Shown: piece after piece, positions 13,855-49,899 of the stretch | How positions within the stretch are numbered: position 1 is the first letter of the stretch | Layout of the letters: every line of letters starts with the position of its first letter | Source of the DNA: a virus | Taxonomy: Duplodnaviria; Caudoviricetes | IMG/VR virus record: IMGVR_UViG_3300035502_000313 | Span: 148,183 to 212,182 of that record | Strand: one strand, 5' to 3' | DNA length: 64,000 nt | Made by a program: the position numbers and the translations under genes | The notes under the pieces: model-generated | Seen by the model: only the letters and a program-made list of their open reading frames with translations | Told to the model about the DNA's origin: nothing | The model's database searches: none

Positions 13855-13983
13855 AAAAAACGACAGACATACTCCACAGCCGCCGAAACTGTGGAGATGC
13901 TGTTCTTTTGTTCTTTTAACAGAGGAAAACAATTCTTCGCAGAGGAAATCATGTCTCAACCAGAAGGCTGATTGCTCAACCTT
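13855..13983 (-). ncRNA. Candidate sRNA A (anti-RBS antisense RNA)
   Basis: Promoter AACA-TTTAGA-TA (13994-13983), 5' GCAA-loop hairpin, two TTTCCTCTG anti-SD boxes, terminator with T6; no ORF and no upstream gene on this strand. Confidence 0.65.
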
Positions 13984-14058
13984 ATCTAAATGTTGATAAA
14001 TATTAGCGATTTATGTGAAAAACATTTCTATAATACAATCAAAAGGAGGAAATAAAAT

Positions 14059-15015
14059 ATGGCTTATTTAAACTTTGACATTTTAAAAGGCAATACTACT
14101 TCAGATAATAAACCAGAACAAGATTTAACTCCTACAGTTATTCCAGTGTCTGAAGGTGAAGAACCTGCAAAAAGAAAAAGAGGAAGACCTAGAAAGAGTG
14201 AGCAACAACCTCAACAAGCTACAGCAGAGATTATTCCTTCTGCTGGTACAAATCCTGTTAATACTGTTTCTATGTGTCAAACATCAGAACCGTATATTGA
14301 TACTTTTAATGAAACAAATGACATGTTAAAGTATTCTATTATGCAGTTAGATGTATTAACTTCTGATGTAAAGAATGAGTTAGATTCTATTAGAAGTTCT
14401 AAAACTCTTAAGGGTAAGTATAAGTATATTTCTGACTTATGTGCAACAGCAAGTTCTCTAGTAAGCTCTAAGATTTCTGCTATTAAAGAAATCAATGCTG
14501 TAACTCATAACTGTCATAAACTTGAACTTCAAAGGGTTAAAGATATCAAGAACTCTGCAGCTAATCAACAGGATGATGATAAGTATATTACTGACCTTTA
14601 TAATGCTTACATTAATACACCTGTAGGAGCTGGTCCTAATCCAGCATTACAATATACATCTTCTAATGTAGCTGGTAATATGCAAGCATTAATGGGCGGT
14701 GTTAATACTATTCCTGTAAACGAAGACCAGAACTTCCAGAATTATATGAGTAATCTAACTCCTGAACAAAATAGAATGATTCTCGGAGATAAGTCCAATA
14801 TTGAAACTGTAGTTGTTTATGATCCTACAACTGGTGAAAAGTCATTTGAAGTTATTGATTCTAGTACAGGTATTTCTGTACCTAATTATCCAAGGCCAAA
14901 TGCAGGACTTCTAGATGATACTAGTATAGATATGGCTACTGGTATTGCATCTAATACAAATATTGGACAGAGTTGGAAAGTTGTCGTACTCGGAGATATG
15001 ATAAACAAATTCTAA
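14059..15015 (+). CDS. AT-hook-containing hypothetical protein
   Basis: KRKRGRPRKS motif near the N-terminus; central helical region; late-type promoter 14021-14032. Confidence 0.65.
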   Translation: MAYLNFDILKGNTTSDNKPEQDLTPTVIPVSEGEEPAKRKRGRPRKSEQQPQQATAEIIPSAGTNPVNTVSMCQTSEPYIDTFNETNDMLKYSIMQLDVLTSDVKNELDSIRSSKTLKGKYKYISDLCATASSLVSSKISAIKEINAVTHNCHKLELQRVKDIKNSAANQQDDDKYITDLYNAYINTPVGAGPNPALQYTSSNVAGNMQALMGGVNTIPVNEDQNFQNYMSNLTPEQNRMILGDKSNIETVVVYDPTTGEKSFEVIDSSTGISVPNYPRPNAGLLDDTSIDMATGIASNTNIGQSWKVVVLGDMINKF

Positions 15016-15018
15016 TTG

Positions 15019-15033
15019 TATACTATTATTATG
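15019..15033 (+). promoter_or_regulatory. Putative early (virion RNAP) promoter TATAYWAT-N4-RTG
   Basis: TATACTAT-TATT-ATG; same motif at 57896(+), 24642(-), 29318(-), 32265(-). Confidence 0.6.
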
Positions 15034-15083
15034 ATTATAAAGAAATTTTATAATCTAATATTAATTACAAAGGAGTTTTATTT

Positions 15084-15413
15084 ATGAAAGGTATCGACAA
15101 ACTCTGTGAATGGTTCACTGAGAATCCAAATGTATGTGCAAAAGAGGTTGAACTGGCACTTAATGAAGAGTGTTATGTTATCGATCCAAATATTATTGAC
15201 AATGAGAATGGAATGTATGCTTATATACCTTGTGTTGTTGTGAGAATTGATATGTCTCAGAATATCCCTGGACGTAAATATTATATGCTTCAGGCTAAAG
15301 AAAGCATTAACGACGAACAGCTTAATAGTTTAGAAGAAGCAGGTATAAAATTCTATAAGTATTTAGAGAATACAAGTCCATATTTGTTCAAAATCAATAA
15401 TACTATTGGATAA
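15084..15413 (+). CDS. Hypothetical protein (early-type promoter)
   Basis: 109-aa ORF with AAGGAG RBS, own promoter and terminator. Confidence 0.7.
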   Translation: MKGIDKLCEWFTENPNVCAKEVELALNEECYVIDPNIIDNENGMYAYIPCVVVRIDMSQNIPGRKYYMLQAKESINDEQLNSLEEAGIKFYKYLENTSPYLFKINNTIG

Positions 15414-15437
15414 CTTAAAGTTTAATCGAAATACTGT

Positions 15438-15465
15438 GAATGAGCCTTCGGGCTCATTCTTTTTT
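15438..15465 (+). terminator. Intrinsic terminator
   Basis: GAATGAGCC-TTCG-GGCTCATTC followed by a T tract. Confidence 0.9.
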
Positions 15466-15482
15466 GTTAAGGAGGTTCTAAA

Positions 15483-16790: not shown

Positions 16791-16831
16791 GAACTTTAAT
16801 ATAAAACACCGAAGAAAAGGAGGTCATTTCA

Positions 16832-19465: not shown

Positions 19466-19480
19466 TGGAGGTGAAATACT

Positions 19481-20479: not shown

Positions 20480-20499
20480 AATTTACAATGGAATATCAT

Positions 20500-20511
20500 A
20501 ACAATATAATA
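20500..20511 (+). promoter_or_regulatory. AR9-type non-virion RNAP promoter AACA-N6-TA (capsid gene)
   Basis: AACA-ATATAA-TA; one of 20 intergenic copies. Confidence 0.75.
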
Positions 20512-20626
20512 AAATAGTGAAAGGGATTTTATTGCTTGCACTATTAAAAATACAAATAACATCAATATCATCATCTAAATATTTATATTTTAACATTTTA
20601 TAAAAATTCAAAAGGAGGATACTAAT

Positions 20627-22657: not shown

Positions 22658-22697
22658 TCAGTATTGAATAATAATTCATATTAATTAGTCTTTATAT

Positions 22698-23966: not shown

Positions 23967-23967
23967 A

Positions 23968-24559: not shown

Positions 24560-24657
24560 AAAAATATCTCCTTTTCATATGTGTGAAAATAAATTTTGAG
24601 AGGACAATGGACTTGTCCTCTCTCTTACACCTATATTATATACAACTAATATATTTT

Positions 24658-29326: not shown

Positions 29327-29403
29327 AAAAAAGTTGAGCAGTAGCCGAAGCCACTGCTCTGCTCAAGAAAGGAATGTACTCTATAGTAGAAGAAATCTAC
29401 TTT
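29327..29403 (-). ncRNA. Candidate sRNA B (anti-RBS antisense RNA)
   Basis: Promoter AACA-TATATG-TA (29414-29403), 5' hairpin AGTAGA/TCTACT, seed CATTCCTTTCTTG, cUUCGg terminator with T6. Confidence 0.55.
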
Positions 29404-29418
29404 ACATATATGTTATAA

Positions 29419-29877
29419 TTAGTGTCTTGTTTTACCCATTTCTTTAGGCTGGAGCTTAGGTGTAGAAACAGCCTTAGCACCCTGACCAGAAACATACATA
29501 CGCTGACCCTTACGAGCAGCAACCTGTGCCTTACTAGCATACTTCTTCTTGATAGCAGCTAAAAGCTTACGTTCCTGAATACGATTCTTAACCAACTTCT
29601 TCCAAAGAGTGTCGTTGTTGTCCTTAGCAAGCTGTAAAGCAGCCATACCTGTACGACGTGTAAGATCATCATTCTTATTAAGTCTTACAATTGTCTTTCT
29701 GCTAATCTTCTTAGCTTCCATAAGAACATCTGCCTGCTCAAGAAGTTCACGCTTGTCGGCATCAGAATCAGAATAATGATCATCATAGAAGAAAGCTTCC
29801 TGAAGCTCATCCATATTTAGATTCATTGTAATTTCCTGAGAATCAGCTATTGCTTGTGCGTTTGTATAAAGTCCCAT
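29419..29877 (-). CDS. Small virion/head protein with acidic N-terminus and basic C-terminus
   Basis: LQEA, LLEQ, LMEA sites followed by a K/R-rich region; late-type promoter 29973-29962. Confidence 0.6.
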   Translation of the reverse strand: MGLYTNAQAIADSQEITMNLNMDELQEAFFYDDHYSDSDADKRELLEQADVLMEAKKISRKTIVRLNKNDDLTRRTGMAALQLAKDNNDTLWKKLVKNRIQERKLLAAIKKKYASKAQVAARKGQRMYVSGQGAKAVSTPKLQPKEMGKTRH

Positions 29878-30057
29878 TTCGGATATCCTCCTTTATAAAA
29901 TATGTATTTATTAATTGCAATTAAAAGAAATGTATGATATATCATACTAATCAGTCTTTTTTATATTATTGTTCTGTTTTTAAAGAGTGAATAACAATTT
30001 GATAATAGATTACTGATTTAACGTAATAAGTAATCTGAGAATAGGAGGAAATATAAA

Positions 30058-35300: not shown

Positions 35301-38300
35301 TCGAGAAGCAGAAAGTGAAAACCAAATTATTAGTGGTAATGCATTAGAAAAGATTGCTAATATATCAGCATATAGAGTTAAACAGTCTTCTGTAAATAAT
35401 GAAAAAATAGATGGAGATGTTAAAAGAGCTGCTAGAAAGCAAGCTATGATAGATGAATTAACTAGAAAGATAGAGAATCAAGAAGCTTCAGTTATTTCTA
35501 GTGAAAAGTCAATTGCTTCGTTAAAACAACAATTACAAACTAAATTATATAATAATGAAGATCCTGGGGATTTAGAAAAAAAATTAGAAAGTCAAGAAAA
35601 GGTTTTAGAAAAGACAAAGGCTAATTTGAAAAATAATAAACAAAAGTTAGCCAAAATAGTAAATAGCACTACAAAAAATAAATACATGGCTGTTGGCGGT
35701 GTTAATAAAACAGGAAAGCCATTTAGATCTGTATTATCTGCAGGTGAGTTACATAACGGAAATATAGTTCCTAAAATGGGTATATATCAAATTAATCCTG
35801 GTGATACTGTTATAAATCCTGCTGGTGCTGCTACAAGAGCTAAACAAGCTAATGCCGAAAGAAAGTATCTTGCTAATATAAGAAGAAATGCAGAAGCTAA
35901 TGACAAATTAACTCCAACCGATGATACTAAAACTAAGGACAAAGATTCTGATGAACAGAATAAAAAGAAGATTCAGCAACTTCTTACTGATACAGACTGG
36001 AATAGTTTATCTACTAAAGAACAAAAGAAAGAATATATCGGTAATGTTGTTTCTAAAGGTTTAATTGGTGGCGGATTAGGTTTACTTGTAGGTGGACCTT
36101 TAATAGGTGCATCTATCGGTGCTGCTTCTGCTTTAACTAAATCTACTGGTTCATTTGCTAGTTTCTTATTTGGTGAAGCTGTTACCGATAAAGATGGTAA
36201 TATACAAGTTGATGATAAAGGTAATGTTAAAAGAGCTGATAATGGTCTTATTAGTCAGGAAATAATGAAGGCTGTGCCAGATATTAAGAAGTATGGTCTT
36301 GGTGGTGCAATTGCTGGTCTATTAACTCCTATCGGTCCTTTAGGCGGTGTTCTTGTTGGCTCTGCATTAGGATTTGCAAAGAATTCTGAAATATTCCAAG
36401 GCTCTTTATTTGGTGAAGGTGGAATATTCTCTGAAGAGAATAAAGCTAAATTTAAAAAAGGTGCTAAAAGCATGGGAATCGGTGCTGCTATTGGTGCGTT
36501 TACTGGTGGTCCATTTGGTTTAGTAGGTAATGCATTATTAGGTGCTACTGCAGGCTATGTTACATCAACTGACAAATTCAAAGACTTTGTTCTTGGTGAA
36601 AAAGATGATCCAAATAATCCTGAAAGTAAGAGACATGGTGGTGTCATGGGTGTTCTTAAGAGTGCTGTTGAACCACTAAAAGATTTTGGTAAAACACTTA
36701 CTAACGGTATATTAGATGCTGTGTTTGGTAAGAAAAATGGTGAAAATGGCAAACGTGAAGGTGGATTATTTGGACTTGTAAGAAAAACTATAATAGATCC
36801 TTTAGCAGACGGCACAAAGACCATGGTAAATGCATTAAATGAAAAAGTAAGAGACATCGGATTTATGGCTAAAAAGACTTGGAAGAAAATTCAAAGAAAA
36901 ATGGCTGGTAATGATGGAGCAGGAGTATTTGGTGAATTTGGTCAAAAAATTGCTAAGGGTGCCACTAAAATAGCCAAAGGTGCAATTATGGCTCCACTAC
37001 TTCCTTTAATGGGAGGAGTAAAATTAGCACAAAAAGGTATTTTTAATCCAATTAAGAGAAAATCAATTAGAACTGGTAAAGCAAGTCATATGACTGCTAG
37101 AGAAAGATTAAAAGCAAGAGGCGAGCTTGGTATGGCTGAATATGATGACTATACTCTTTTTGATAACTCTCTTACTGAAATGGACAATGATTCTATTCAG
37201 TCATTAAAAGATAGACTTTCGGTTTATGTAGATGGCGATGATGCAGCGTTTAAAGAACAGAATAATCTTTTTGACAGTACAGGAAGAGAACTGAGAGATT
37301 ATATATCATCAAAAAATGCAAATAAAATTATGAAAAGTCTTAAAAAAAATGACTATAGAGAAGCTGAAAGATTAATTAGAACTGGTAATTTTAAAATAGA
37401 GGGTGGTGAAGCTAATAGAGGTAAACTTGAAGCAATAATTAAAAAGCATAAAAGAAAATATTCTACAATCGATGAAAGAATGGCTAAAGCTAACAGTGCA
37501 AGCAAATTATCAAGTAAAGTTCTTAAAGATGAATATGGCCTTGATGTTGATTTAAACGATCCAAGAGATGTTGATAAGGTTAAGAGAATGCTTGATAGAG
37601 AACTGATTCATAACGAAGCTGGATTAACTGAAGAGGATATGGAATTTGATAGAATGAGAGAATTCTGGTCAGATGATAAATCTCCTCTTAAGACAGTTAA
37701 TAGTGGTGTAGAAGCTGTAGTTAAAACTTTAGATAATATTTATAATGAAGTAAAACTAGGTAATGAATATGACAAGTTATCTGATGAAGAAAAATCTAAA
37801 TATGAATCTAGAGAAGATTATATTCAAAAGAATAAAGCTACTGCTGAACCAGATGCTACTCAAGATAAACTCAATGGTAAAAAATCTGATTCTACTAATA
37901 AACATAGAAAATTTTCTAGGGTTAAAATGGTACAAGAAAATCCAGATAAATTCTCAAAAACTATAAAGAGAATTATTGAAGAAGCATTGAAATTATTTGA
38001 CGGAAAAGTAATGGAAGAAATTAGTGACCCAAATAAAATTAAAATAGATATCGATAAATGGAAATTAGAGAATCCAGATAAAGACTATAATAATGAAAAG
38101 CTTATTAGAACTAATATTATTATTGATAGTCTTGACCAAAAGTATGAGTTTGACTGTGCTTATGTATGTAAGCAAAGTGGTAATAATTTCTCAGTTGAAA
38201 TTGCTAAAAATCAATCAGAGAGTTTCGAAACATGTAGAGAAGATTTTGCTAATGCATATCTAGATGCACGTATGCCTAAAAGTGCTAAAGGTAAAGGCAG

Positions 38301-41300
38301 TTATATGAGTTTTAAAGACATGGTTAAAAAGACTATAAAGATATCAGGATTCTTTGTAGCTGCTAGTATTGTTCCTGGTGGAGCTCTTGTTTTAGGAGCA
38401 AAACTTGCTTTTATGAAAATAGCTAAAAAACGTGGATGGGATAAAAAACTCAAAAATGGTATTAGACGTGTTAAAAACGATGTAAAACATGTTCTTGGTT
38501 CTCATGCGATTGATTCAAGTTCAAAAAGACAACAAAGAAAAGAAAAAAACTATAATGCAAAAGCTGAAAAAGTACTTCAGAAAATGATAGAAAAAGGTGA
38601 TGCTCAGCTAGATACTATAGCACAAGAAAAATATAAAAAGAACTATTCTGAGTTAACTGATGATGAAAAATCAGCGGTAAATGCTACATTCAAAGAAAGA
38701 TATGTAAATAATAAAATTGCTAATCAAGTTACCGGTCATGGTTTATTAGGAAATATTAAAGCTGCTCCTAAAGCTCTCATGGGAACTTTAAAATCTGGTA
38801 TAAAAAATCTAACTGCTGGTAAAATTGATAAAGTCAAAGAGAAAATACAAAAACAAAAAGAAGAAGATAGATTTATAGGAAAATTATTTAATAAACTAGA
38901 TAAATGGAAACTAGGAAGAGATGAGAAAAACTTTAAAGGTAAAAAGGATAGTAGACTTGCTAAAATACTGAAATGGCTATTTATAGGCGGTATTGCTGTT
39001 CCTATACTAGTAGGATTTGTTAAAGATAAAATCATGCCTGCTGTTCATGATAAGATTCAACCATGGCTAAAGAAAGCTGCACAAAAGCTTATTGGTACTA
39101 AGAATGAACAAACTGGTGAATATGAAGGTGGAATAATAGCTGGTATCGTAAATCCTGTTAGAAACTTCTTTAAAGACAAATTCCAAACTATTAGTGATTG
39201 GTTCCATAATAAAGGAAAGTTTACTAGTCCCGATACTGGTTTCAAAGGATTAATAGGAAACTTTAAATCTGCAATCAATTACGGTATAACACTATGGAAA
39301 GATGGTACATCTACAATTCTAAATGATTGCTTGCCTAAAGTAGTTGAAGGAATAGTAGCTAATTTACCAACTATACTTGGTGCTATAGGAACTGGTTTAA
39401 TAAATGGTATAAAGGATATCTTTTTTGGTAAAAAAGATGGTACTGGAGAACAATCATTAGAAACTGTAAATGCTTCTCAGATGGTTGATTCTACTTCTTC
39501 TAGTAGCGATAATGATTCATCTTCTTCAAGTACTGGAATTAAATTTAATAATACAGTTGGTGGAACATGGGTTGAAACAGTAGGTGGATCGTCAACTAAA
39601 GTAGGAAGTTATGTAGATGTAGTTTCATTAAATAGTGACATATATCAACCTACTTCAAGAAAAACTAATGATGATGGATCGACAACTTTAACAAATGAAA
39701 ATACTGGAGAATCTGTTACATCTGAATTTATTGATGATGATTCGATGGTATCTGCTGGTACAAACAAAGCTGGAGATAAAATATATTATAAGAGAACAGA
39801 TGTTAACAGAACTCAACCGTATACAAAGGCTAATGACGGTGAATATGTTAGAATGGATAAGCAATCCAGTGTTATGCTTAGCAGTCTTCAAGACAATCAA
39901 AGCTATGCTGATATGGTTGCTGATAACGATGCTGGAGACGCTGGTGTAACTGATTCTTATACAGGAACAAACCCAGCTTTAGAAAAGACAGCATATGCTG
40001 GAAAAGTATTAACTAAAGCAGCAACTAGTAAATCAGGTGCTAAAGGTCTTTCTATGGCAATTAAAGCTGGAGGAAAAGGTGTTAAAATAGCTGGTAAAAT
40101 GATTAATCTTATTCCAGGCACAAATGTTGCTGGATGGGCTACAAAGAAATCATTAGGAAAAGTTGGAGATAAAATAGTTGATTCTGCAGATGATGTATCA
40201 TATAAATACTATAATTTCATGCAATCTAAAATATCCAAAGCAGTAGAAAATAGTAAAGTTCTAAGCAAGGTTAATAATGCAGGAATTAAGATTAAAAATG
40301 CTCCTAAAAATATAGCTGAGAAAGCTAAAAATGCTATAAAAAATAAAATGGGAAAAACTGCAGAGAATGCTACTAAAAATGCAGCCGAGAATGCCGCAGA
40401 AAAAGCCGCTAAAGAAACTGCTGAAAAAACAGCTAAAGAAGCTGCAGAGAATGTTACTAAAAATGCAGCTGAAAGTGTTATGGAAAGTTCTACTAAAAAT
40501 GCAGCTAAAACAGGAGGAACCTCATTTTTAGCTAAATCCGTTAAAGAATTATTTGAAAAAGCCAAAAGTAAAATAATTGAATGGTTTGCAAAGCTATTTA
40601 AAGGTAGTGCTGTAAAAGAAGCTGCAAAAAATGCTGGACGTGAAATAACAGAAGAAACTGCAGAAAAATTAGCTAAAGAAACTGGTGAAAAATTAGTTAA
40701 AGAATGTGCTGAACAGGGTGCTGAAAAAATAGCTACAGTAGCTGGTAAAAACCTCGTATCATCAGCATGTGATTGTTCTGGTATAGGAGTAGTAATTAAT
40801 ATAGCATTTGCTATAGCAGACTTCTTACTAGGTATGGATGATGCTAGAAATATATTACAAATTACTGGAGATGATATTCCATTATCTTATAGATTCTTCG
40901 CAGGTCTTGCTAATACAATGCAAGATATTCCAATTGTCGGAATATTATTAGGTTGTATTGGAGCTAAGAACATTGTTTATTATCTAGTAGAATGGTTTGG
41001 AGATATTCTCTTCCCTGAAGCTACTGAAGAATTAAAGAAGAGACAAGAAGAAGCACAACAAACTCTTGAACAATATAATGCACAAAATAATACTAATTTA
41101 ACACTAGAGCAGTATAATAATAAAAAGTACGCTACTGTATCAAGTACAGTAAGTGGATGGTTCTCAGATGCTGGTTCATTCTTATCAGGAAAAGATGCTA
41201 CAGTATCAGAAGCTATGGAAACAAGACGAAATGTAGCAGATTCTAATGATACTGTAACTGACATAAGAGAAAAACTTGAAAGTATAGCTTCTCATATGTG

Positions 41301-44300
41301 GGAAAAACAAGGTGATAAATTTAAAGATTTTAACCTTAGTAAAGATACATATGGAAAGTTATGTGCTGAAGTTATTGATAAGATAGTATTATTACTAAAT
41401 GGATTAGATGATGATTCATTAAGTAAAGTTTTAACTAGTGCTGGAAAAATAGAAACAGGATTTTGGGCAAATGCTGGTTACACTACTCTAAAATATCTTA
41501 CTTTTGGTGCTTATGATGGTGACCCATTTGTTGATGCATGGGATGACGGTTATAAAGGTCTTTCATATCTTGGTCTTGATAAAAAAGATGGATGGGAAAA
41601 TACAAGTGTTGTAAAATGTATCGGTGGTATAGCTTCAGTATTTGTTAAGGCATGTGGTGGAGCTAACTTAAAATGGAAAATTATTGACATCGTAATTTCT
41701 GTATTTGGTAATGGTATGGCTGGAGATTCTATAGATGAAAATTCTAAGAAACTTGTAGAAAATAGCAATTCCAAAATATCAAATATTAATGATGCGTATG
41801 ATTCAAATTTACACGGAAATTCTGGTACAACATCTGTAAGTCTGTCATCGTCCGATTCGTCATCAACATCTACAGCAGAAGATGTAGTTGCAAATGCAAA
41901 TGCTAATAGTAAATTATCAGCTATATCTGGATTGTACAACACAGCTAAATCAAACATGATTAACACTGCAGGTTTTATAGATGATAAGATAAGCAGTAGT
42001 CTATTTGGCGAAGTATATAATAATGCTAAATCAACTGCATCTGGATTGTATAACACAGCTAAATCAAACTTAAAATCTACAGCATCAGGTTTATATAATA
42101 CTGCTAAATCAAACATGATTAACACTGCAGGTTTTATAGATGATAAATTAAGTAATAGTCCATTTGGTGGAATATACAATTATGATAAATCTGCTGCATC
42201 AGGATTATGGAACTTCTTTAAAGGAATATTTACTAATGCAGAAGCTAATAGTAACTTATCTCCTATAAATATGACATCAAACAATAAAGATAAAAATAGT
42301 GGTTCGTCAATAGGTAGATTTCTAATGCTTATTCCTAATACTATTAATAATGCTATAACAAATATGACTGGTGATTTAAGTAAAATAGAAGATATGTTCT
42401 CTGGTCTAGTTAAAAAGAATAAGAGTATAAATGATTCTATTGATTCTTTATCATTACTTCCTACAGATAAAAAATATTGGGATATCGAAGTAGATAATGA
42501 TAACCCATTTGTAAGTGGACTGTTTAAATTTGTTGAATCTATGAACAGAGTTGTTAAGGCACCATTCTCTTTGGCAGTTTCGTCATTAGGAAAGGGATTG
42601 TCTGCTGTTTCGTCTTCATCATCAAACAGTAGTAGTTCTTCTTCATCTTCGTCATCAAGTGGATCAACAAATAGTAGTGATAGTTCTTCTAGTAGCAGTT
42701 CTAGTAGTAGTGGTGGTATTTTATCTAAAATTGCTACTGGTGCTAAATCAATATTTAAAAAGGTTTCATCTGGTATAAAGAGCTTTTTTGGTTTTGGTAA
42801 AGGTAAAGATGATTATGATGATACTGGTTATGGTGATGATCCTTTCCATATTTATCAAAGAGATTATAAAGGCTCATATAGAACTACTGGAGATTCAGAA
42901 AGTCAAACTATAGCAGATTCAGGTTGTGGACCAGCTGCAGCAGCATCATTGTTAAGAATGTATGGCAAGAAGGGTGATATGCATAATGCTGTTAATTATG
43001 CTTTAAGTAATAAATATAAAGAAGTAGATGGTGGTACATATCCTCAATACTTTAATGATTACTTAAATAAGAACGGTATTAGTACAAACTCTAATGCAGA
43101 TAATAATGATGTAGTAAATAGTCTTATTCACAATAAGCCTGTTATCTTAATGGGACGTGATTCAAGTAATAGTGGTACAACGCCTTATGGATCTAAGTAT
43201 TCTCACTATGTAGTAGCTAGAGGACTGGATTCAAATGGTAATGTTATAGTAGAAGATTCTGAAGATAAGAACGGTAGTACTAGATATAGTCTAGCAGATA
43301 CTCTAAGAAATTCATCAGTAAGAATAACAACCGGTAATGGTAAATATGGTAGAGGTGCTACATCATCTATGGCTGAAAACTTTACCACAGGCGTTAGCTA
43401 TACTGTAACATCAGCAGTTTCTAATATAGTATCTAATGCAGCAAATTCTGTGGCTGGACTATTAGGAAGTAGCTCTACATCATCTAGTACATCTAATGAT
43501 GCATCTGCAAGCACTAATGGCGTAGAAGGAAGTATTACTGCTGATACTGATGTTAAGACAAAATGTGGTTATACTGCTGATCAATTAAAAGCTGCTATTA
43601 CATCAATTCATTCAGGATGCAGTGCAGAACAATTCCCTGAACTTGCTATACAAGTTGAAAATTCTAAGGGTGTCAATGCATTATTTACAATAGCTGTAGC
43701 TATTAGTGAACATGGATGGGATGGTACAATTGGTGTTAATACTACCGGTGCAAACTGGGGTAACTATAACCCATTCAATATATCCGGTTCTCCTAACTCA
43801 TCAAATGGAAGATGGAAAGATTATAATAGCTTAAGTGATGCATTTAATGGATTTGGTGACTTAATTATGGGCAGTGGTTATTATCAAGCTGGATTAACTA
43901 CACCTGGTACAATTGGTCCTAGATACTGTGATAGTGGATGGGCTAGTGGTGTATGTACAGTCGCTGATATGATTGTTAAAAAGATATCCGGTAGTGGTAA
44001 GGGCAAAGAAATTATGTCTACATTTAATAATAAATTCTTAAGTAATGTAAACAATGCTGTTAATTACTTTGCTACTAAATCTCTAGCAAGTCTTTCATCA
44101 GGTTCTACATCATCATCTGACTCACAATCTAATAACGCTAATAATAGTAGTGGCGGTACAGCAAATGTTGATATAGATGCTGAAACAACTATCATCTGTG
44201 GTGACTCTGTTACACATGGATTAAGTAGTACTAGTCTTGGAGATCGTGCAATGGGTCTAAGCTCAGGTACAACTGATAAGAATAATACTACAACTTATGG

Positions 44301-47300
44301 TAGTTACGAATCTATATTCAAAGCAAAGAGTGATATAATTGCTAATGCTACTGATGCTATATTCTTCTGGGGTATGAATGAAGTAAACACATCCATGTCT
44401 ACTGATGATTACTTTGCAAGATATCAAGATTCTATCGATACTATCTTAGGATATGGTGGAAGATCTACATCTAATACTAATATATACATTCTTCCTGTAA
44501 TTTGGGTACCGGATAACTCTGGATACGGTGGAAGCTTTAATGCATCTAAAGTAGAGAAGTTCAATAGTACATATATTAAACCATTTGCTCAAAAGAAGGG
44601 TTATACATTTGTAGATATTTATGAAGATTCTAAGAATGTTCCTCATGAAGCTGGAAACGTACATCCATCTAACTATCAAAAACTATATGAAATTATTAAA
44701 GGTCATATGGCTGGTAATAGTAATGTAGATGTTTCTGATAGCGGTTCTGGACGTGGTTCTGGTAGAAAAGGTTCTTTAGAAGCTGAACAAATAATATCTG
44801 CTAACGGAAGAGGAAGATCACGTAAAATAGGAACTGGAAGAGGACAAACTAAGAATCATGATTTTGTTGGCGGTTCTTCTTCTGGTGAAGATTTAATTAC
44901 ACTAATCTCAAAGAAGAGAAGAAGAAAGAAATATGGCAGAGGTATATGGGGTCGTGATGGTGAAGAAACCACAGACACTACAACAACTACCGATACAGAA
45001 GCAACGGATGACACTGAATCTACTGATGAAACAACTGATGACACATCTTCTTCTAGTAGTTCATCAAGTTCTGGTGCTACAGGATTAATATCCTTACTAA
45101 GTCAATATTCATCTGCAGTTACTAGAGGTATATTTGGTAACTTCTATGATGCAATATATGGTGATACATCTGAACAATCTGTTAGTAGCAATACTGGTAA
45201 CAGCAGTGGAGGAAGTCTAACAGAAGGCGATGCAGAAGCTAATATGAAGAGTATGTTTAACTATTTTAAAGGCGAAGGATTTAGTGATAATCTAGCTGCT
45301 GGTATTCTAGGAAATGTCAAGGGTGAATCTGGATTTGATCCACATGTTGTAGAAGGTGGTTCAAGCGGTACGATAACTACTGATATGAGTCATGGTTATG
45401 GATTAATTCAGTGGACTGGTGCATCAGGAAGAGCTTGTCTTTATAACTGGTGTACAGCAAACAATTGTGATCCTGAAACATTAGATGGTCAGACAAAATG
45501 GATTGTTGCTCAAATCAAGGGTACAAACATTTCAGATGAAGCTAACTCTGCAAATGCATCTATGTTTAATGGTCAAACTGGTCAAGGAACAATGTCATAT
45601 AACTGGTCTCTATTCCAAAAGAAAGGTTCATTCAGTACATTTAATGGATATACATTACATGATGCTGTTAAACTTTGGTTAGAGTGTGCAGAAAGACCTG
45701 CTGATATGGATGGAGCATTAACTACTAGAGTTAAATATGCAGAAGAAATATTGGCTGCTTGTACTAGTGGATCAGGTAGAGGAAAGGCTAAAGACCTAAT
45801 TACTAAAAAGGCTAGACCTAAACGTAGTAAATATGGTAAAGGCATATGGGGTCGTGATGGAGAAGAAACAACTGCTTCTGATACATCCACAGCAACAGAT
45901 ACATCTACTACTGATACATCAACAGACACAACAACAGATGAAACAACTACTGACGATACATCATCAAGCTCGTCTTCATCATCTTCAAATTCTGGTGCAA
46001 AATCTCTCATTAGTAAACTTAGCAGTTATGCTAAAGCTACTATCAAGGGTGTATATGGTAACTTCTATGATGCATTATATGGTAGTGAAGCTGTTGAAGA
46101 TACTTCAAGTGGTACAACTGGTGATAGAAGTGATATAATATATGCTGCTGCTATGGTATTCGAAGCATTGTATAATGCCGATCCATCATTGTATTATGAT
46201 TCATCTGGTAGTACACATCATGATTTAGTATGTCGTGATGGTACGAAACTTGAACATGAAAGACCAGACTGTTCTGGTATGATGTCTGCTGTTATTCATT
46301 ACATGGGTTATTATACAGCTAGATATAGTACAGAAACAGCGTATACTGACACATATCATGGTGAAGGATTTGGTACACAAAACTGGGATTCCGCTAGTGG
46401 AAATACCTGTATATATGATGCTGATGGCAATTTATCTAATGACTGGGAAGTTTTATCTAGCGATGTAACTCCTCAACCTGGTGATATTAGATTCGCTGCT
46501 GATCATGGTCATACAGACATGTTCGTATTCTATGACGGAACTAACTATCCTCGTGGATTTAATGCGGGATCTGGTGACTCTGGTTCTTCAACAGGTAATG
46601 GTATGTATAACTCATATTGTTTAGCTACTTATTATTTCAATAATAATAATCAATTACCTGATCCAAGCACTGTTTCTTCAGGAAGAGGACAAAATGGTGC
46701 AGGAACTATCCAAGATAATAATACAAAATTAGTTCTTAGATATAAAGGTTCTGGTAACGGAAGATTTGGACGTGGTTCAAGTCGTTCTAAAAAACCAGAT
46801 TTCAATAAACTAAATAACATTCCTATTGATAATAAGAGATATACTGACGATGGTAGCATATCTAGCTATGTTTCTAAACAAATTGTACAAAATCAAATTT
46901 CTGGTACTTATAGAAATGGAAAAGGTGGATATGGTCGTGGTATATTAAAATCATTAGATGATGTACAACAGAAAACAGCAAATTCAACTTTATTTAGTGG
47001 CACTAAAAATAATTCTACTTTATCAAGTACTTCTTCTACTTCTACTGGTTCATCATACAGTAGTAATAGTAGTTCTAATTCAAGCTATTTAGGTACGAAT
47101 GGTAATGCTACAGTTGATTTAAATCAATTGATAGGATTAATAAGTGTAATCGCTAATAATGCTGACAAGATGGATGCTGTATTACAACTTCTTGGCTCTA
47201 TTGCTGTTAATACTGAAAACACAACAAACGCAATTTCAACAAATAAGAATAGTAATAATTCTACATCTAAGAATGGATTATCTGCATTAAGAACAGCACT

Positions 47301-47361
47301 TGATTCAAATAGTTCAGGAGTAGATATTGCTAATGCAGTTTATCAAATTGCTAAAAGTTAA
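32359..47361 (+). CDS. Giant tape-measure-like tail protein with C-terminal enzyme array (C39-like peptidase, glucosaminidase-like, SGNH, phage tail lysozyme, NlpC/P60-like)
   Basis: 5000 aa; helical K/A-rich body with Gly-rich hydrophobic repeats; GCGPAAA...HYVV; AISEHGW...NPFNI; GDSVT...GMNE...VHP; GILGNVKGESG...GLIQWT; DCSG...PGDI...GHT. Confidence 0.8.
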   Translation: MSVQVQKYIKNLGKSITYSAADVLNSKFEYINETKQENQEVFKEVYHSIKDYKNTFARVKKTITDNKVMDAARVGYNSVLYSITTGDFYAKQREAEVMEKYGGSFMQGFDMDDDDFDWDNDDLSTGDKVVATAIKKNSKIGTALTVEAISQTGKAQMDVSRENTMLLYTQNERMLNKLDNGFGNILGFLKQNGEQTAKVQNQMNENLNKFMTNVDNNITKLTKQMDELLEMQRNMYNPKKEEEKRKVGYDDMISRNGVLNIKEYSKHVKKNAFNTINDMSGGMLSYIFGDSLGQGSNLLAQFSANPFRTISETFINKALGKNFDRAAKELNTTLEGIVPSLIGKLNAASKKDDSGIMGFLGKIFGIKDGSRENIDTSRYNKGAIPFDGITKRAITDVIPYYLRKMTSVLTGEQEMIYDFQTGKWSSMKAVKAAHDNAVNSAKYSTANALTGIIESGLGGRRLSDSYKNKYDYDKIVKAIESLAGKLQNAGDFGSVDESLDIYERDVMKMLREAMRLDDGSGNDRRFTRNSKGKRISSGIQRSAIGGFNNMLRQNRLSQNNTIKSINNGDSILRIIESEGLASQSTENYQAKSFVNSHGDFDQNKIQQMPVTQALIRGRDEYGVTLYQYLRDMDLSLRYIKANSTYLGSLNSNENGESNKNNEEIVKHILKDGDIDFTKDKESQYIEKYFENMQNKNRRKEEDDWDKRISEARKRAAAKGEIYTLATSTDFESSNGDTGIANIMRNSSSKTAAKAKIAYTREQQKQEEERWKAIAGIIGQEEANKARANLDQYDSDKSIKDNMEKVKDKGFTASLMMFAKSLGNKIRNPGDAAADTIVKVDYWLQKLIYGEDLKDSENGRKSLFENMKDQFQKGIQGIRESIDKGFEKLKEKVSPLFKPLKELGKKIFGTKDENGFYQGGMIGSFIGGVQKGFRRNSSDFSGYIKNQYSDFKNRFTQDRPEPELSSKQKYDARRSEIMNKLNREAESENQIISGNALEKIANISAYRVKQSSVNNEKIDGDVKRAARKQAMIDELTRKIENQEASVISSEKSIASLKQQLQTKLYNNEDPGDLEKKLESQEKVLEKTKANLKNNKQKLAKIVNSTTKNKYMAVGGVNKTGKPFRSVLSAGELHNGNIVPKMGIYQINPGDTVINPAGAATRAKQANAERKYLANIRRNAEANDKLTPTDDTKTKDKDSDEQNKKKIQQLLTDTDWNSLSTKEQKKEYIGNVVSKGLIGGGLGLLVGGPLIGASIGAASALTKSTGSFASFLFGEAVTDKDGNIQVDDKGNVKRADNGLISQEIMKAVPDIKKYGLGGAIAGLLTPIGPLGGVLVGSALGFAKNSEIFQGSLFGEGGIFSEENKAKFKKGAKSMGIGAAIGAFTGGPFGLVGNALLGATAGYVTSTDKFKDFVLGEKDDPNNPESKRHGGVMGVLKSAVEPLKDFGKTLTNGILDAVFGKKNGENGKREGGLFGLVRKTIIDPLADGTKTMVNALNEKVRDIGFMAKKTWKKIQRKMAGNDGAGVFGEFGQKIAKGATKIAKGAIMAPLLPLMGGVKLAQKGIFNPIKRKSIRTGKASHMTARERLKARGELGMAEYDDYTLFDNSLTEMDNDSIQSLKDRLSVYVDGDDAAFKEQNNLFDSTGRELRDYISSKNANKIMKSLKKNDYREAERLIRTGNFKIEGGEANRGKLEAIIKKHKRKYSTIDERMAKANSASKLSSKVLKDEYGLDVDLNDPRDVDKVKRMLDRELIHNEAGLTEEDMEFDRMREFWSDDKSPLKTVNSGVEAVVKTLDNIYNEVKLGNEYDKLSDEEKSKYESREDYIQKNKATAEPDATQDKLNGKKSDSTNKHRKFSRVKMVQENPDKFSKTIKRIIEEALKLFDGKVMEEISDPNKIKIDIDKWKLENPDKDYNNEKLIRTNIIIDSLDQKYEFDCAYVCKQSGNNFSVEIAKNQSESFETCREDFANAYLDARMPKSAKGKGSYMSFKDMVKKTIKISGFFVAASIVPGGALVLGAKLAFMKIAKKRGWDKKLKNGIRRVKNDVKHVLGSHAIDSSSKRQQRKEKNYNAKAEKVLQKMIEKGDAQLDTIAQEKYKKNYSELTDDEKSAVNATFKERYVNNKIANQVTGHGLLGNIKAAPKALMGTLKSGIKNLTAGKIDKVKEKIQKQKEEDRFIGKLFNKLDKWKLGRDEKNFKGKKDSRLAKILKWLFIGGIAVPILVGFVKDKIMPAVHDKIQPWLKKAAQKLIGTKNEQTGEYEGGIIAGIVNPVRNFFKDKFQTISDWFHNKGKFTSPDTGFKGLIGNFKSAINYGITLWKDGTSTILNDCLPKVVEGIVANLPTILGAIGTGLINGIKDIFFGKKDGTGEQSLETVNASQMVDSTSSSSDNDSSSSSTGIKFNNTVGGTWVETVGGSSTKVGSYVDVVSLNSDIYQPTSRKTNDDGSTTLTNENTGESVTSEFIDDDSMVSAGTNKAGDKIYYKRTDVNRTQPYTKANDGEYVRMDKQSSVMLSSLQDNQSYADMVADNDAGDAGVTDSYTGTNPALEKTAYAGKVLTKAATSKSGAKGLSMAIKAGGKGVKIAGKMINLIPGTNVAGWATKKSLGKVGDKIVDSADDVSYKYYNFMQSKISKAVENSKVLSKVNNAGIKIKNAPKNIAEKAKNAIKNKMGKTAENATKNAAENAAEKAAKETAEKTAKEAAENVTKNAAESVMESSTKNAAKTGGTSFLAKSVKELFEKAKSKIIEWFAKLFKGSAVKEAAKNAGREITEETAEKLAKETGEKLVKECAEQGAEKIATVAGKNLVSSACDCSGIGVVINIAFAIADFLLGMDDARNILQITGDDIPLSYRFFAGLANTMQDIPIVGILLGCIGAKNIVYYLVEWFGDILFPEATEELKKRQEEAQQTLEQYNAQNNTNLTLEQYNNKKYATVSSTVSGWFSDAGSFLSGKDATVSEAMETRRNVADSNDTVTDIREKLESIASHMWEKQGDKFKDFNLSKDTYGKLCAEVIDKIVLLLNGLDDDSLSKVLTSAGKIETGFWANAGYTTLKYLTFGAYDGDPFVDAWDDGYKGLSYLGLDKKDGWENTSVVKCIGGIASVFVKACGGANLKWKIIDIVISVFGNGMAGDSIDENSKKLVENSNSKISNINDAYDSNLHGNSGTTSVSLSSSDSSSTSTAEDVVANANANSKLSAISGLYNTAKSNMINTAGFIDDKISSSLFGEVYNNAKSTASGLYNTAKSNLKSTASGLYNTAKSNMINTAGFIDDKLSNSPFGGIYNYDKSAASGLWNFFKGIFTNAEANSNLSPINMTSNNKDKNSGSSIGRFLMLIPNTINNAITNMTGDLSKIEDMFSGLVKKNKSINDSIDSLSLLPTDKKYWDIEVDNDNPFVSGLFKFVESMNRVVKAPFSLAVSSLGKGLSAVSSSSSNSSSSSSSSSSSGSTNSSDSSSSSSSSSSGGILSKIATGAKSIFKKVSSGIKSFFGFGKGKDDYDDTGYGDDPFHIYQRDYKGSYRTTGDSESQTIADSGCGPAAAASLLRMYGKKGDMHNAVNYALSNKYKEVDGGTYPQYFNDYLNKNGISTNSNADNNDVVNSLIHNKPVILMGRDSSNSGTTPYGSKYSHYVVARGLDSNGNVIVEDSEDKNGSTRYSLADTLRNSSVRITTGNGKYGRGATSSMAENFTTGVSYTVTSAVSNIVSNAANSVAGLLGSSSTSSSTSNDASASTNGVEGSITADTDVKTKCGYTADQLKAAITSIHSGCSAEQFPELAIQVENSKGVNALFTIAVAISEHGWDGTIGVNTTGANWGNYNPFNISGSPNSSNGRWKDYNSLSDAFNGFGDLIMGSGYYQAGLTTPGTIGPRYCDSGWASGVCTVADMIVKKISGSGKGKEIMSTFNNKFLSNVNNAVNYFATKSLASLSSGSTSSSDSQSNNANNSSGGTANVDIDAETTIICGDSVTHGLSSTSLGDRAMGLSSGTTDKNNTTTYGSYESIFKAKSDIIANATDAIFFWGMNEVNTSMSTDDYFARYQDSIDTILGYGGRSTSNTNIYILPVIWVPDNSGYGGSFNASKVEKFNSTYIKPFAQKKGYTFVDIYEDSKNVPHEAGNVHPSNYQKLYEIIKGHMAGNSNVDVSDSGSGRGSGRKGSLEAEQIISANGRGRSRKIGTGRGQTKNHDFVGGSSSGEDLITLISKKRRRKKYGRGIWGRDGEETTDTTTTTDTEATDDTESTDETTDDTSSSSSSSSSGATGLISLLSQYSSAVTRGIFGNFYDAIYGDTSEQSVSSNTGNSSGGSLTEGDAEANMKSMFNYFKGEGFSDNLAAGILGNVKGESGFDPHVVEGGSSGTITTDMSHGYGLIQWTGASGRACLYNWCTANNCDPETLDGQTKWIVAQIKGTNISDEANSANASMFNGQTGQGTMSYNWSLFQKKGSFSTFNGYTLHDAVKLWLECAERPADMDGALTTRVKYAEEILAACTSGSGRGKAKDLITKKARPKRSKYGKGIWGRDGEETTASDTSTATDTSTTDTSTDTTTDETTTDDTSSSSSSSSSNSGAKSLISKLSSYAKATIKGVYGNFYDALYGSEAVEDTSSGTTGDRSDIIYAAAMVFEALYNADPSLYYDSSGSTHHDLVCRDGTKLEHERPDCSGMMSAVIHYMGYYTARYSTETAYTDTYHGEGFGTQNWDSASGNTCIYDADGNLSNDWEVLSSDVTPQPGDIRFAADHGHTDMFVFYDGTNYPRGFNAGSGDSGSSTGNGMYNSYCLATYYFNNNNQLPDPSTVSSGRGQNGAGTIQDNNTKLVLRYKGSGNGRFGRGSSRSKKPDFNKLNNIPIDNKRYTDDGSISSYVSKQIVQNQISGTYRNGKGGYGRGILKSLDDVQQKTANSTLFSGTKNNSTLSSTSSTSTGSSYSSNSSSNSSYLGTNGNATVDLNQLIGLISVIANNADKMDAVLQLLGSIAVNTENTTNAISTNKNSNNSTSKNGLSALRTALDSNSSGVDIANAVYQIAKS
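41925..42150 (+). repeat. Intragenic SGLYNTAKSN(MINTAGFIDDK) repeats
   Basis: Three copies of SGLYNTAKSN, two followed by identical MINTAGFIDDK. Confidence 0.85.
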
Positions 47362-47369
47362 TTAATTAT

Positions 47370-47400
47370 GAGGGTTGGAATGTTCCAACCCTCGTATTTT
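47370..47400 (+). terminator. Intrinsic terminator
   Basis: GAGGGTTGGA-ATGT-TCCAACCCTC then GTATTTT. Confidence 0.8.
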
Positions 47401-47448
47401 TATATCTAGAACATTAGTATAAAATATTTGAAAGGAGAGAATTGTAAA

Positions 47449-49755
47449 ATGGCAAAACAAACATTTTATAAATTATCTAATACCGATAATGTTGCTAGTT
47501 ATGCAAAGGGACAAGGTGATTGGGCAAATAAGGGTGTTAATAGCGTTCTTTATGTAATTACAAAGTCAAATTATAATATATATAGCAGTGCAGAAGCAGC
47601 AAAAGGAAAAAGTCAAAACAGTAAAGATGAAAATGCTATGTATACTATATCAATTGGAACAGCTTTAAGAGTTACAGGAAGAGCTAATATTGGTAATTCT
47701 ATAATATTACAAGTAAATTGTAATGGTAAAAATGGTTATATATATGTAGGTAATGTAAAAGAAACTAATTCTGGTAGTAGTGGTAATACTCGTACATGGA
47801 AATGGGATGGTAATCCAAATGTTTTTTTAGCTTTAAAAAGTAATAATACTTATTCATTATCCGGTTATGGATTAGGAACTAATGATGTTGGTTCTTCAGG
47901 TGAATATTCAGTATTTGATAGTAGCAGGATATTATATACTGGTGGTAATTCAAGCTCTGCAGAGGATTCAACAGATACTACAACATCAGCTTCTATAGCA
48001 TCTACAACAGCTAGTGCAGATAGTGCTAGTACAGGAGAAATAAATGTTACGTATGAATTTGCTGTAACAGGAACTAAATATTCATATAAAATGGAGGAAT
48101 ATTTAGCATATCTAGAAGATCAAAATAACAGTAATCAGGACTTAACTGGATCTGAGAATGGAATTAATTATTCTGGATTAAAGTATGTATTCGGAATGCC
48201 GTATCAATTTTTACCAACAACAGACTGTAGAGTTGGTGCTGGATATGATGATGAAATTGAAAAAGCTGGATATGAATTTTCTGAGAAGATTATAGCTAGA
48301 TTACATCTGTTATATATTACCCCAGGTAATACTGCATTTATGGGTTCTAGTAGTAGTTCTGTTGCAAAAGAAAATGCTAGAACAACTTTATTAGGATCAC
48401 TTGAATCTACATTGTTTGGAGATGATACAACGGAATCATCGTTAGAAACTATGCTTGGTGAATATAACGGTAAACTATATACGATAACACCAGCATATAC
48501 AGAATATTTCAAATATGTAAATCCATTATGTCGTTCTGGTGCTATATTCTTAGATATAGGTGGTACGTCTTTTAATAGCACTTCAATAGTAGAAAATTCT
48601 GCACTAGAAACTAGCTCTGCGTGTTTTGCTAATATGAACTGGGGTGTTAATGAAGGTGTAGCATATGATATATGGTTGGAAGAAGAGGATACATTAGAGG
48701 GTGCAGAGGATGATGAAGAGGCAGAAGATGTTTCAGAAAATAGCGATACTACTACAGATCAAGAAGAAACAGAATCAACAAGAGCTAAATTTGAAAGGGA
48801 TTATTCCGACTTCTTTGTACAATATGAAGATGCATCTACCTCTGAATTTTCTAAGTTCTTTAAGAATTTATATTATGGAAACTCTATAGCTTTTTATATA
48901 AATTCAGATTCATCATTCCAAGATTCTTTCTCAAATGAAACTACAGAATCCTCTCTATCTACTACGATTAATGCGTTATCAGATAAAGCTAGAGAACTTC
49001 AGTTCTTATTAGGTACAGCTAGTACAGCTGTCGGTGAAGCATTTGATAAAGTAGATGGTACCCTTAGTCAAATTAAATCACAGATAAGTAGTATTGTAGA
49101 TACTGTTGCTGGTGGTAATTCTATTTTTACTACAATAGCTAATAGTGTTAAAACAATTGTATCTGGTGGTCGTATGTTATTCCCACAGATTTGGTCTAAT
49201 AGTGGATTTTCAAAATCGTATAATATAGCTATTAAACTAGTCAGTCCTAATACAGATAAAGTATCTTGGTATTTGAATATATATGTGCCTTTATGCCATT
49301 TAATGGCATTGGTGCTTCCTAGATCAGAATATGTAAATTCTTATACAACTCCATTTCTTATTAAAGCATTTTATAAAGGTATGTTTAATATAGATATGGG
49401 TATTATTACAGAAATGTCATTTACTAAAGGTAAGGAAGGCTCATGGACTAAAGATGGTCTCCCTACAGTAGTAGATGTATCTTTCTCTATTCAGGATTTA
49501 TATAGTGCTATGGGTATGACATCAACAGCGAATATGTTTAAAGGTACTACTTTACAGAATGTATCTGAGATGGATTATATCGCAAACTTATGTGGTATTA
49601 ATATAAATGAACCTGACCCATTTAGAATGGTTAACTTATGGTGTGCATTTAATATATCTAATAAAGTATATGACTTTATTCCTAATTTATCACTTGGATT
49701 ACAGCAGTATGTATCTAATGGTATTATAAATGCATATAACAATTTCTGGTCATAA
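47449..49755 (+). CDS. Virion tail/baseplate hub-type structural protein
   Basis: Follows the tape measure gene; C-terminal FPQIW..S.FSKSY...PFLIKA...GII..MSF.KG...GLPTVVDVSFSIQDLY tube-fold-like pattern; promoter 47410-47421. Confidence 0.55.
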   Translation: MAKQTFYKLSNTDNVASYAKGQGDWANKGVNSVLYVITKSNYNIYSSAEAAKGKSQNSKDENAMYTISIGTALRVTGRANIGNSIILQVNCNGKNGYIYVGNVKETNSGSSGNTRTWKWDGNPNVFLALKSNNTYSLSGYGLGTNDVGSSGEYSVFDSSRILYTGGNSSSAEDSTDTTTSASIASTTASADSASTGEINVTYEFAVTGTKYSYKMEEYLAYLEDQNNSNQDLTGSENGINYSGLKYVFGMPYQFLPTTDCRVGAGYDDEIEKAGYEFSEKIIARLHLLYITPGNTAFMGSSSSSVAKENARTTLLGSLESTLFGDDTTESSLETMLGEYNGKLYTITPAYTEYFKYVNPLCRSGAIFLDIGGTSFNSTSIVENSALETSSACFANMNWGVNEGVAYDIWLEEEDTLEGAEDDEEAEDVSENSDTTTDQEETESTRAKFERDYSDFFVQYEDASTSEFSKFFKNLYYGNSIAFYINSDSSFQDSFSNETTESSLSTTINALSDKARELQFLLGTASTAVGEAFDKVDGTLSQIKSQISSIVDTVAGGNSIFTTIANSVKTIVSGGRMLFPQIWSNSGFSKSYNIAIKLVSPNTDKVSWYLNIYVPLCHLMALVLPRSEYVNSYTTPFLIKAFYKGMFNIDMGIITEMSFTKGKEGSWTKDGLPTVVDVSFSIQDLYSAMGMTSTANMFKGTTLQNVSEMDYIANLCGININEPDPFRMVNLWCAFNISNKVYDFIPNLSLGLQQYVSNGIINAYNNFWS

Positions 49756-49787
49756 ATATAATATTAAAATATATCAAACTATATAGT

Positions 49788-49899
49788 AAAGATATAGAAA
49801 TGGTGACCTGTATCTTTTATTCATTTTTATTTTTCTCCTGGAAAATTACTTACATAAAGAAAATTCCTCACTGGACTTTAATCCAGTGGGATTTTCTTT
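49788..49899 (+). ncRNA. Candidate sRNA C (anti-RBS antisense RNA)
   Basis: Promoter AACT-ATATAG-TA (49777-49788), 10-bp 5' hairpin, seed TTCATTTTTATTTTTCTCCT, terminator. Confidence 0.6.

Follow-up and report, generated by a model that had tools for sequence, protein, structure and literature searches.

Three intergenic units in an AR9-like phage genome

The subject of this analysis is a set of three short intergenic units, hereafter loci 1, 2 and 3, that lie in the final 64 kb (64,000 nucleotides, hereafter the window) of the 212,182-bp virus record IMGVR_UViG_3300035502_000313 (Caudoviricetes; G+C 31%). The gene content of the window includes a family B DNA polymerase in two parts and pieces of a multisubunit RNA polymerase, and the proteins of the Bacillus phages AR9 and PBS1 are about 25% identical to those of this phage; this kinship, together with strong AGGAGG sites, leads us to infer a Bacillota-type host. 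Letter-for-letter matches to the window are found among contigs of animal-gut metatranscriptomes. Locus 1 occupies a divergent gap; on one side lies the promoter of the divergent gene, back to back with that of the unit, and on the other the own promoter of the DNA polymerase gene. Loci 2 and 3 each lie between the stop codon of an upstream gene and the only terminator of that gene, which unit and gene share (Table 1).

A first-pass annotation had described each locus as a promoter of the AAC(A/T)-N6-TA type that is followed by no gene, and had placed behind it a hairpin, an unpaired seed and a terminator. All three units are present at these coordinates, with the promoter core, a hairpin that begins between +1 and +3, a CU-rich open stretch and a terminator. 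The +1 positions were predicted with the rule known from AR9, namely AAC(A/T) at -11 to -8 and T(-1)A(+1) (PMC9209446, PMC5312081); all three unit promoters obey this core rule, and the core is kept in all unit-bearing relatives. The statement that no gene follows needs qualification: the units are non-coding, but the next gene has its own promoter 10-45 nt past each terminator, and at all three loci this downstream promoter is better than that of the unit. Among the relatives compared, no open reading frame (ORF) within the units is conserved on either strand, by length or by sequence; candidate frames of 33 codons within the locus 1 RNA and of 55 codons spanning locus 3, as well as plus-strand mini-ORFs, were rejected as genes, none of them being kept in relatives. 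The folds of the three window units are more stable than those of shuffled sequences (z = -2.8, -3.7 and -4.5). The units have no match in Rfam, at gathering score or at E <= 5, and BLASTN of locus 1 against phage records returned none.

Table 1. Predicted elements of the three units and of the adjoining DNA polymerase promoter (positions in the window)
Feature	Position	Strand	Remark
Locus 1 promoter core, AACA-N6-TAA	13982..13994	-	predicted +1 13983
Locus 1 5'-terminal hairpin, 8 bp	13964..13983	-	U.G pair, A.C if read on the other strand
Locus 1 CU motif 1, CAUGAUUUCCUCUG	13940..13953	-	AUGAUU(U)CCUCU kept in AT-rich clades
Locus 1 CU motif 2, AUUGUUUUCCUCUG	13920..13933	-	UUCCUCU or CCUCUCU kept in every clade
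Locus 1 intrinsic terminator, extended stem and T6	13855..13903	-	from fold and relatives
Own promoter of the DNA polymerase gene (P2)	13831..13843	-	profile rank 31; adjoins locus 1 terminator; kept in relatives
Locus 2 promoter core	29402..29414	-	predicted +1 29403, 5 nt past the stop codon of a 152-aa virion protein gene
Locus 2 5' hairpin	29385..29401	-	from fold
Locus 2 CU motif, UUCCUUUCU	29364..29376	-	invariant in six units
Locus 2 terminator	29327..29364	-	common to unit and upstream gene
Locus 3 promoter core	49777..49789	+	predicted +1 49788
Locus 3 5'-terminal hairpin	49788..49817	+	stem differs in L024, L022a, L022b
Locus 3 CU motif, UCUCCUG, in the loop of a small hairpin	49829..49846	+	from fold
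Locus 3 terminator	49856..49900	+	common to unit and upstream 768-aa virion protein gene

Conservation of the layout and turnover of the units

The relatives were drawn from IMG/VR and from metagenome contigs (L numbers below), with at least 148 confirmed relatives among the metagenome matches listed; for locus 1, the comparison set comprised about 30 relatives, among the matches listed, whose DNA polymerase N-part is 52-86% identical to that of the window. Changes in the stems, which vary in length and could not be aligned by MAFFT or RNAalifold, were followed by per-sequence folds and shuffles. The claim that one layout is carried by unrelated sequences was borne out by these relatives, in which the hairpin register, the CU motifs and the terminators are kept. 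Of 25 units (three loci, about 20 phages), 24 have a hairpin that starts between +1 and +3, with differing stem sequences; the corresponding rate is 7% for the 70 highest-scoring promoters of the profile and 14% where the motif occurs by chance in coding sequence. Of the 21 distinct units, 15 reach p <= 0.05 against shuffles. The terminators consist of a G+C-rich stem and a U-tract on the transcribed strand, the tract being weak in the higher-GC clade L035/L045/L077 and in L021. The CU motifs are retained in relatives and predicted to be unpaired, as was expected of a seed. The fuller description of this seed, as the complement of both a Shine-Dalgarno (SD) sequence and a start codon, survives for its first half: an anti-SD-like CU motif is present, whereas the CAU is kept only at locus 1, and relatives lack it or have it displaced at loci 2 and 3.

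Every relative of 52-86% identity (five or more clades) has locus 1 in synteny, with the single exception of contig L067, and a motif scan with inspection of a few sequences did not find it in the examined relatives below about 50% DNA polymerase identity. Its core AACAT-N5-TAA(G/A) is invariant in every unit-bearing relative, while the 5' hairpin is built from about 11 distinct stem sequences whose start is always between +1 and +3, and the terminator takes the form of perfect stems of wholly different sequence in nine lineages, with the T-run on the minus strand only. The U.G pairs in the hairpins of the window and of L027 would read A.C on the opposite strand; since the G.U pairs and T-runs fit only the minus strand, this appears to be the transcribed one. 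The two CU motifs of locus 1, which are kept in every clade (save for motif 1 in L072) and predicted to be partly or mostly open (unpaired probability about 0.3-0.7), are UUUCCUCU-like in the AT-rich clades and elsewhere consist of GUCCUCCU or CACCUCC plus CCUCUCU, with GUCCUCCU or CACCUCC occupying the position of motif 1 in distant clades. The complementarity to SD and start could also be explained from the other strand, as the reverse image of a plus-strand mini-ORF start (SD AGAGGAAAU and AUG). An SD-like sequence with ATG does exist on the plus strand in most clades, and three close relatives have an 18-20-codon frame in common; yet the ORF is conserved neither in length (6, 3, 8, 17-21 and 27 codons) nor in sequence, L072 has lost the SD, no promoter motif lies upstream on the plus strand, and G.U pairs, T-runs and promoter alike point to the minus strand. 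We regard this explanation as extremely improbable. It is worth adding that the 26-bp spacer at 13995-14020, which separates the promoter of the locus 1 RNA from that of the divergent 318-aa gene, is highly conserved in relatives and may be a regulator binding site.

The locus 2 unit is present in two clades, represented by the window, L010, L015, L016, L017 and L019, where the core AACATA-N4-TAA is kept, and absent from the clade of L011-L014, L018 and L020, where the terminator directly follows the stop codon. The hairpins in the relatives have 9-13-bp stems of other sequence and begin at +1 or +3. UUCCUUUCU is unchanged in six of six units while its flanking bases vary, and its unpaired probability is 0.74-0.98, excepting L017, in which an overlong stretch was folded. 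At locus 3, the core AACTATAT(A/G)(A/G)TAA is kept in L021-L024 and the +1 hairpin changes. UCUCCUG is found in three locus 3 units, including L024 and L022a, and is replaced by ACCUUUCU in L022b; the unpaired probability of the locus 3 motif is about 0.7-0.98. A tandem pair of promoter-hairpin-CU-terminator units stands at the locus 3 position in L022:2650-3010 and L023:2650-3010. The ACCUUUCU of the second tandem unit resembles the motif of locus 2, in the very clade that is without locus 2.

In L067 (DNA polymerase 79% identical; positions 680-1212), the locus 1 unit is cleanly deleted and its promoter is fused with P2 into AACATATATATAAAT; on the face of its sequence, this contig is a natural deletion variant for locus 1. 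Together with the presence and absence of locus 2 and the tandem pair at locus 3, this deletion shows, as far as genome comparison reaches, that the cassettes are discrete, mobile and individually dispensable, being gained, lost and duplicated among related phages.

Our first reading of the loci was that they are ordinary gene terminators beside chance promoter motifs, given the low profile ranks of the unit promoters (see below), the 14% hairpin background and the chance density of anti-SD 5-mers, and it was dropped after the relatives had been compared. The window does hold 148 bare motifs, and a hairpin follows chance motif sites at the rate given above; on the other hand, motif, register, hairpin and CU motif are kept across clades while the stems are replaced, and at locus 1 there is no upstream gene for the terminator to terminate. 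Because relatives preserve the motif, the hairpin register and the terminator while stem sequences change, we take the units to be more than chance, and functionless coincidence to be very unlikely. That they are real, conserved RNA cassettes seems highly probable to us.

Promoter class and transcript evidence

The bare AAC(A/T)-N6-TA (AACW-N6-TA) motif is a weak signal, since it occurs in 468 copies genome-wide, 148 of them within the window. Its distribution is more telling: intergenic copies number 100 as against 53 +/- 8 in shuffles (about twofold), and the motif accumulates 30-50 nt ahead of start codons. Alignment of the 53 copies located at 30-49 nt gives the consensus AACW-(T-rich)-WATAAW, with A at +2 in 50 of the 53 sites. 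The promoter class is thus genuine in this genome. AR9 uses this motif as the late promoter of its non-virion RNA polymerase, with the mapped start at the A of TA (PMC9209446, PMC5312081). For the most-expressed genes of the window, RNA contigs start 12-37 nt past the predicted +1 and never before it (20523-20548 for a +1 at 20511; 29935-29936 for a +1 at 29962 or 29967), a weak hint that the AR9 rule applies in this phage as well.

Hairpins near the 5' end are not confined to the units. Late genes at 20500-20626 (+), 4105-4211 (+) and 29878-29978 (-) have 5' untranslated regions (UTRs) of about 85-116 nt that follow an AACW-N6-TAA core and open with a hairpin at +3, and such a hairpin may serve to stabilise the transcripts of this phage in general. 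A highly expressed 175-aa gene at 24560-24657 (-), whose promoter is of the TATATAAT type and not of the AACW type, also carries a 5' hairpin, GAGAGGACA...UGUCCUCUC; the contigs of four RNA runs all end there at 24618-24620.

One RNA contig, X2 (29362-29935), links the highly expressed 152-aa virion gene with locus 2, whose hairpin and CU motif it crosses as far as the terminator stem; contigs of this kind can neither show transcript starts nor separate out a short RNA. In the stretch compared, which included loci 1 and 2, none of the contigs listed falls on locus 1, and this tells neither for nor against a transcript there.

Complementarity to translation initiation regions

When the unit RNAs were paired with the 168 start regions of the phage, no more than 3, 1 and 1 shuffles out of 60, respectively, equalled their median duplex energy, and start regions pair with the unit RNAs better than windows inside coding sequence do. 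The prediction that pairing would exceed that of shuffled controls therefore holds for start regions as a class, an affinity that is to be expected because an anti-SD motif predicts it and that is not specific; it fails for the best single target of locus 1, as detailed in the next section.

The expectation of specific phage mRNA targets found no support, as the best matches in this genome lose their extra complementarity in the orthologues. The start regions of a 567-aa gene (12-bp helix) and of an 88-aa gene (14-nt exact match to motif 2) were both rejected as targets, their extension beyond the SD core being absent from the orthologues in four or five related genomes. As regards the host, a search of 185,579 genomes for a 20-mer that complements motif 1 of locus 1 together with its flank yielded 3 matches in unrelated phyla, about the number due to chance. 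Early-gene shut-off was likewise not favoured, for the difference in pairing energy is slight and leans to genes with a late-type promoter (p = 0.02-0.5). The genes that flank the units rank as ordinary targets among the 168 start regions, save, weakly, that of the DNA polymerase at locus 1, whose start region is among the top 12 and the top 16 for the two locus 1 motifs.

These results raise the question of whether the units are real small RNAs with another job, their CU motifs serving as sponge or decoy for a protein (a nuclease, a defence sensor or an RNA-binding protein that takes pyrimidines), or as general mimics of the 16S tail that compete for SD sequences. Such a role would agree with the finding of no specific or co-varying target, with the generic nature of the motifs and their double occurrence at locus 1, and with conserved bases outside the CU core of locus 1 (e.g., GGUUGA) for which no pairing partner was found. 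No candidate protein is known, however, and the motif types differ by locus (UUCCUCU, UCCUUUCU, UCUCCUG), as is more readily explained by pairing than by one protein-binding site. We consider another job of this kind rather unlikely.

Separate RNAs or parts of neighbouring transcripts

The alternative that we take most seriously, unlikely as we hold it to be, is that the units are cis-acting UTR modules: loci 2 and 3 would simply be the 3' UTR of the upstream late gene, and locus 1 the leader or attenuator of a distal promoter of the DNA polymerase gene, whose SD would be masked by the anti-SD motifs in read-through transcripts. At loci 2 and 3, the upstream gene has only the terminator that it shares with the unit, contig X2 crosses from gene to unit, and the unit promoters score low on the genome profile. 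At locus 1, the high rank of the DNA polymerase start region points the same way, and in the L035 clade motif 1 matches that region at 9 of 9 bases. AR9 provides a parallel. At 59871-60044 (= L147:372-545 (+)), a strong distal late start lies upstream of PhoH (g075), and UUAAUCCUUCCC in the resulting leader can pair over 12 bp with the SD of the gene; the leader from the proximal start at 60010 lacks this CU stretch, and the two leaders may form a translational switch in cis. With this precedent, locus 1 may still be read as a leader. Against the cis-module alternative, all relatives preserve the exact register of promoter core and hairpin at each of the three loci. Between the locus 1 RNA and the DNA polymerase gene lie a strong terminator and another full promoter, and complementarity to the SD of that gene is only about 6 bp in L027 and L031; the genes that flank loci 2 and 3 do not stand out as targets. 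A comparison of loci 2 and 3 with type I 3'-UTR small RNAs reflects the same division: both units precede the sole, shared terminator, with promoter core and register conserved, and the one contig seen, X2 at locus 2, is continuous with the mRNA.

Several observations weigh against small RNAs made from their own promoters and acting through SD pairing. On the extended genome profile (-4 to +17), the unit promoters rank 95, 108 and below 130, at ranks where the hits lie mostly in coding sequence; the deviation of the unit promoters from the profile resides mainly in the first transcribed bases, i.e., those forming the hairpin. The transcript ends of the units are predicted ones, and since contig X2 is continuous, the CU motif of locus 2 is at least part of a virion mRNA 3' UTR. 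With its best single target, locus 1 does not surpass shuffled RNAs (29 of 60), and the extra complementarity to the two best targets is, as said, not conserved. L072 is without motif 1 of locus 1, the locus 3 unit of L021 is without a CU motif, and L067 does without the locus 1 unit altogether. Finally, anti-SD 5-mers on the sense strand of intergenic DNA occur at chance density, 2.4 per kb.

Other features of the window and of the genome

A fourth candidate unit, at genome positions 14290-14691 (L052, genome 14200-14750, outside the window), was excluded for want of a +1 hairpin. On the minus strand of L052, a 400-nt gap free of genes has a terminator of its own upstream; it contains CU-rich stretches and a second hairpin, and its promoter core is the same as that of locus 3. 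Within the window, the halves of the DNA polymerase are encoded at 11735-13783 (-) and 30058-32154 (+), on opposite strands with 16 kb between them, and a single ORF of 5000 aa extends over 32359-47361 (+) under its own AACW promoter. Positions 62474-62600 equal genome positions 1-127 (127 identical bases) and the sequences diverge beyond, so that this is not a simple long terminal repeat.

Discussion

Taking all of this together, the reading that we favour is that the three loci are small non-coding RNA genes of an AR9-like jumbo phage which probably pair with SD regions, and we put the chances of this combined reading at about even. Its parts do not stand equally firm. Beyond the cassettes themselves, transcription of the units from their own predicted promoters is likely, and action by SD pairing is a more tentative proposal, somewhat on the doubtful side. 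What the sequences show is the layout of the units, its conservation, compensatory changes in the stems, CU motifs predicted to be open and an affinity to start regions as a class. Transcription from these starts, stability of the RNAs, action in trans and the existence of targets are all inferred, and the roles in early shut-off and anti-defence put forward in the first-pass annotation are conjectural.

The mechanism that seems to us the most likely is the following. Each RNA, of about 77-129 nt, would be made from a promoter of the non-virion RNA polymerase (AACW-N6-T-A, that A being +1), and the hairpin at the first transcribed base would shield it from 5' decay, as may be typical in Bacillota. 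The weakly structured segment would then offer one or two CU-rich motifs that resemble the anti-SD tail of 16S rRNA, and an intrinsic terminator would end the RNA. Locus 1 stands alone in its divergent gap, and loci 2 and 3 sit inside the 3' UTRs of late virion genes, in the manner of type I 3'-UTR small RNAs. The CU motifs would pair with purine-rich SD regions and hinder binding of the 30S subunit, as in LhrC and RsaE, and this pairing is probably broad and not directed to one gene. A bolder version, which we think quite unlikely, holds that the cassettes form a modular, fast-evolving set of phage-polymerase RNAs which jointly display parts of the 16S anti-SD tail (UUCCUCU, UCCUUUCU, UCUCCUG), and that this set is a phage-timed global competitor for ribosome-binding sites, shifting translation late in infection instead of silencing single genes.

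Comparable RNAs are known from bacteria and phages. The small RNAs (sRNAs) of the RsaE/RoxS and RNAIII types in Bacillota expose unpaired C- or CU-rich motifs against G-rich SD sequences and combine a 5' stem-loop with a terminator. The units have no sequence or structure homology to RsaE/RoxS by Rfam, and their motifs are UUCCUCU-like and not CCC/UCCC. LhrC1-5 of Listeria monocytogenes are multicopy RNAs of about 100 nt in which three redundant CU-rich sites, located in loops or single strands, pair with the SD of the targets and impede translation, Hfq not being needed (PMC4132741). Like LhrC, the units are non-coding and have accessible CU-rich motifs complementary to the SD; in contrast, LhrC is bacterial and stress-induced, with homologous copies and proven targets, whereas the units are phage-encoded, mutually unrelated and presumably driven by the phage polymerase, and no target was found for them. 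In phages P1 and P7, the c4 antisense RNA blocks a ribosome-binding site with complementary bases exposed in loops (PMC12197685); it differs from the units in being processed from an operon and in having one cognate target (ant), which co-varies between the phages and for which no counterpart was found here.

Among jumbo phages, sRNAs of 201phi2-1 and phiKZ were found experimentally as transcription start sites closely followed by termination sites, less than 250 nt in length and with enriched reads, some being positionally conserved upstream of a gene, and eleven such units of 201phi2-1 have no known function (PMC11512511). These are Pseudomonas phages with another promoter type, and neither an anti-SD motif nor a rule for a hairpin at +1 has been described for them; the units reported here come from comparative evidence alone. 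The AR9 transcriptome paper describes no small RNAs (PMC5312081). The strongest late start that it lists, 75478 (-), has a step height of 3757 and is given as 'antisense' to g090 (PMC5312081, Table S3); the RNA at 75379-75478 (= L148:480-579 (-)) begins AAUGUCCUCCUG and continues with a 16-bp hairpin. It follows the same promoter rule as the units, although it has no hairpin at +1 and no sequence similarity to them and was not called a small RNA (PMC5312081), and its CU motif may just mirror the SD and ATG of the other strand. A 2025 review of phage-derived sRNAs leaves Bacillus and other Gram-positive hosts unmentioned and lists c4 of P1/P7 as the sole phage RNA that blocks a ribosome-binding site (PMC12197685). 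Judged by layout and conservation, the units are best read as CU-seed-type small RNAs, a known kind that would be new in AR9-like phages.

The small RNAs of virulent phages are little explored. The cassettes are compact, each consisting of a promoter, a putatively stabilising hairpin, a candidate seed and a terminator, and they are directly testable in Bacillus subtilis. If they are transcribed, a polymerase-specific promoter, a hairpin at +1, an open CU motif and a terminator would make up a simple sequence rule by which sRNAs could be recognised in uncultivated AR9-like phages, and translational control would be a further layer of the jumbo-phage programme.

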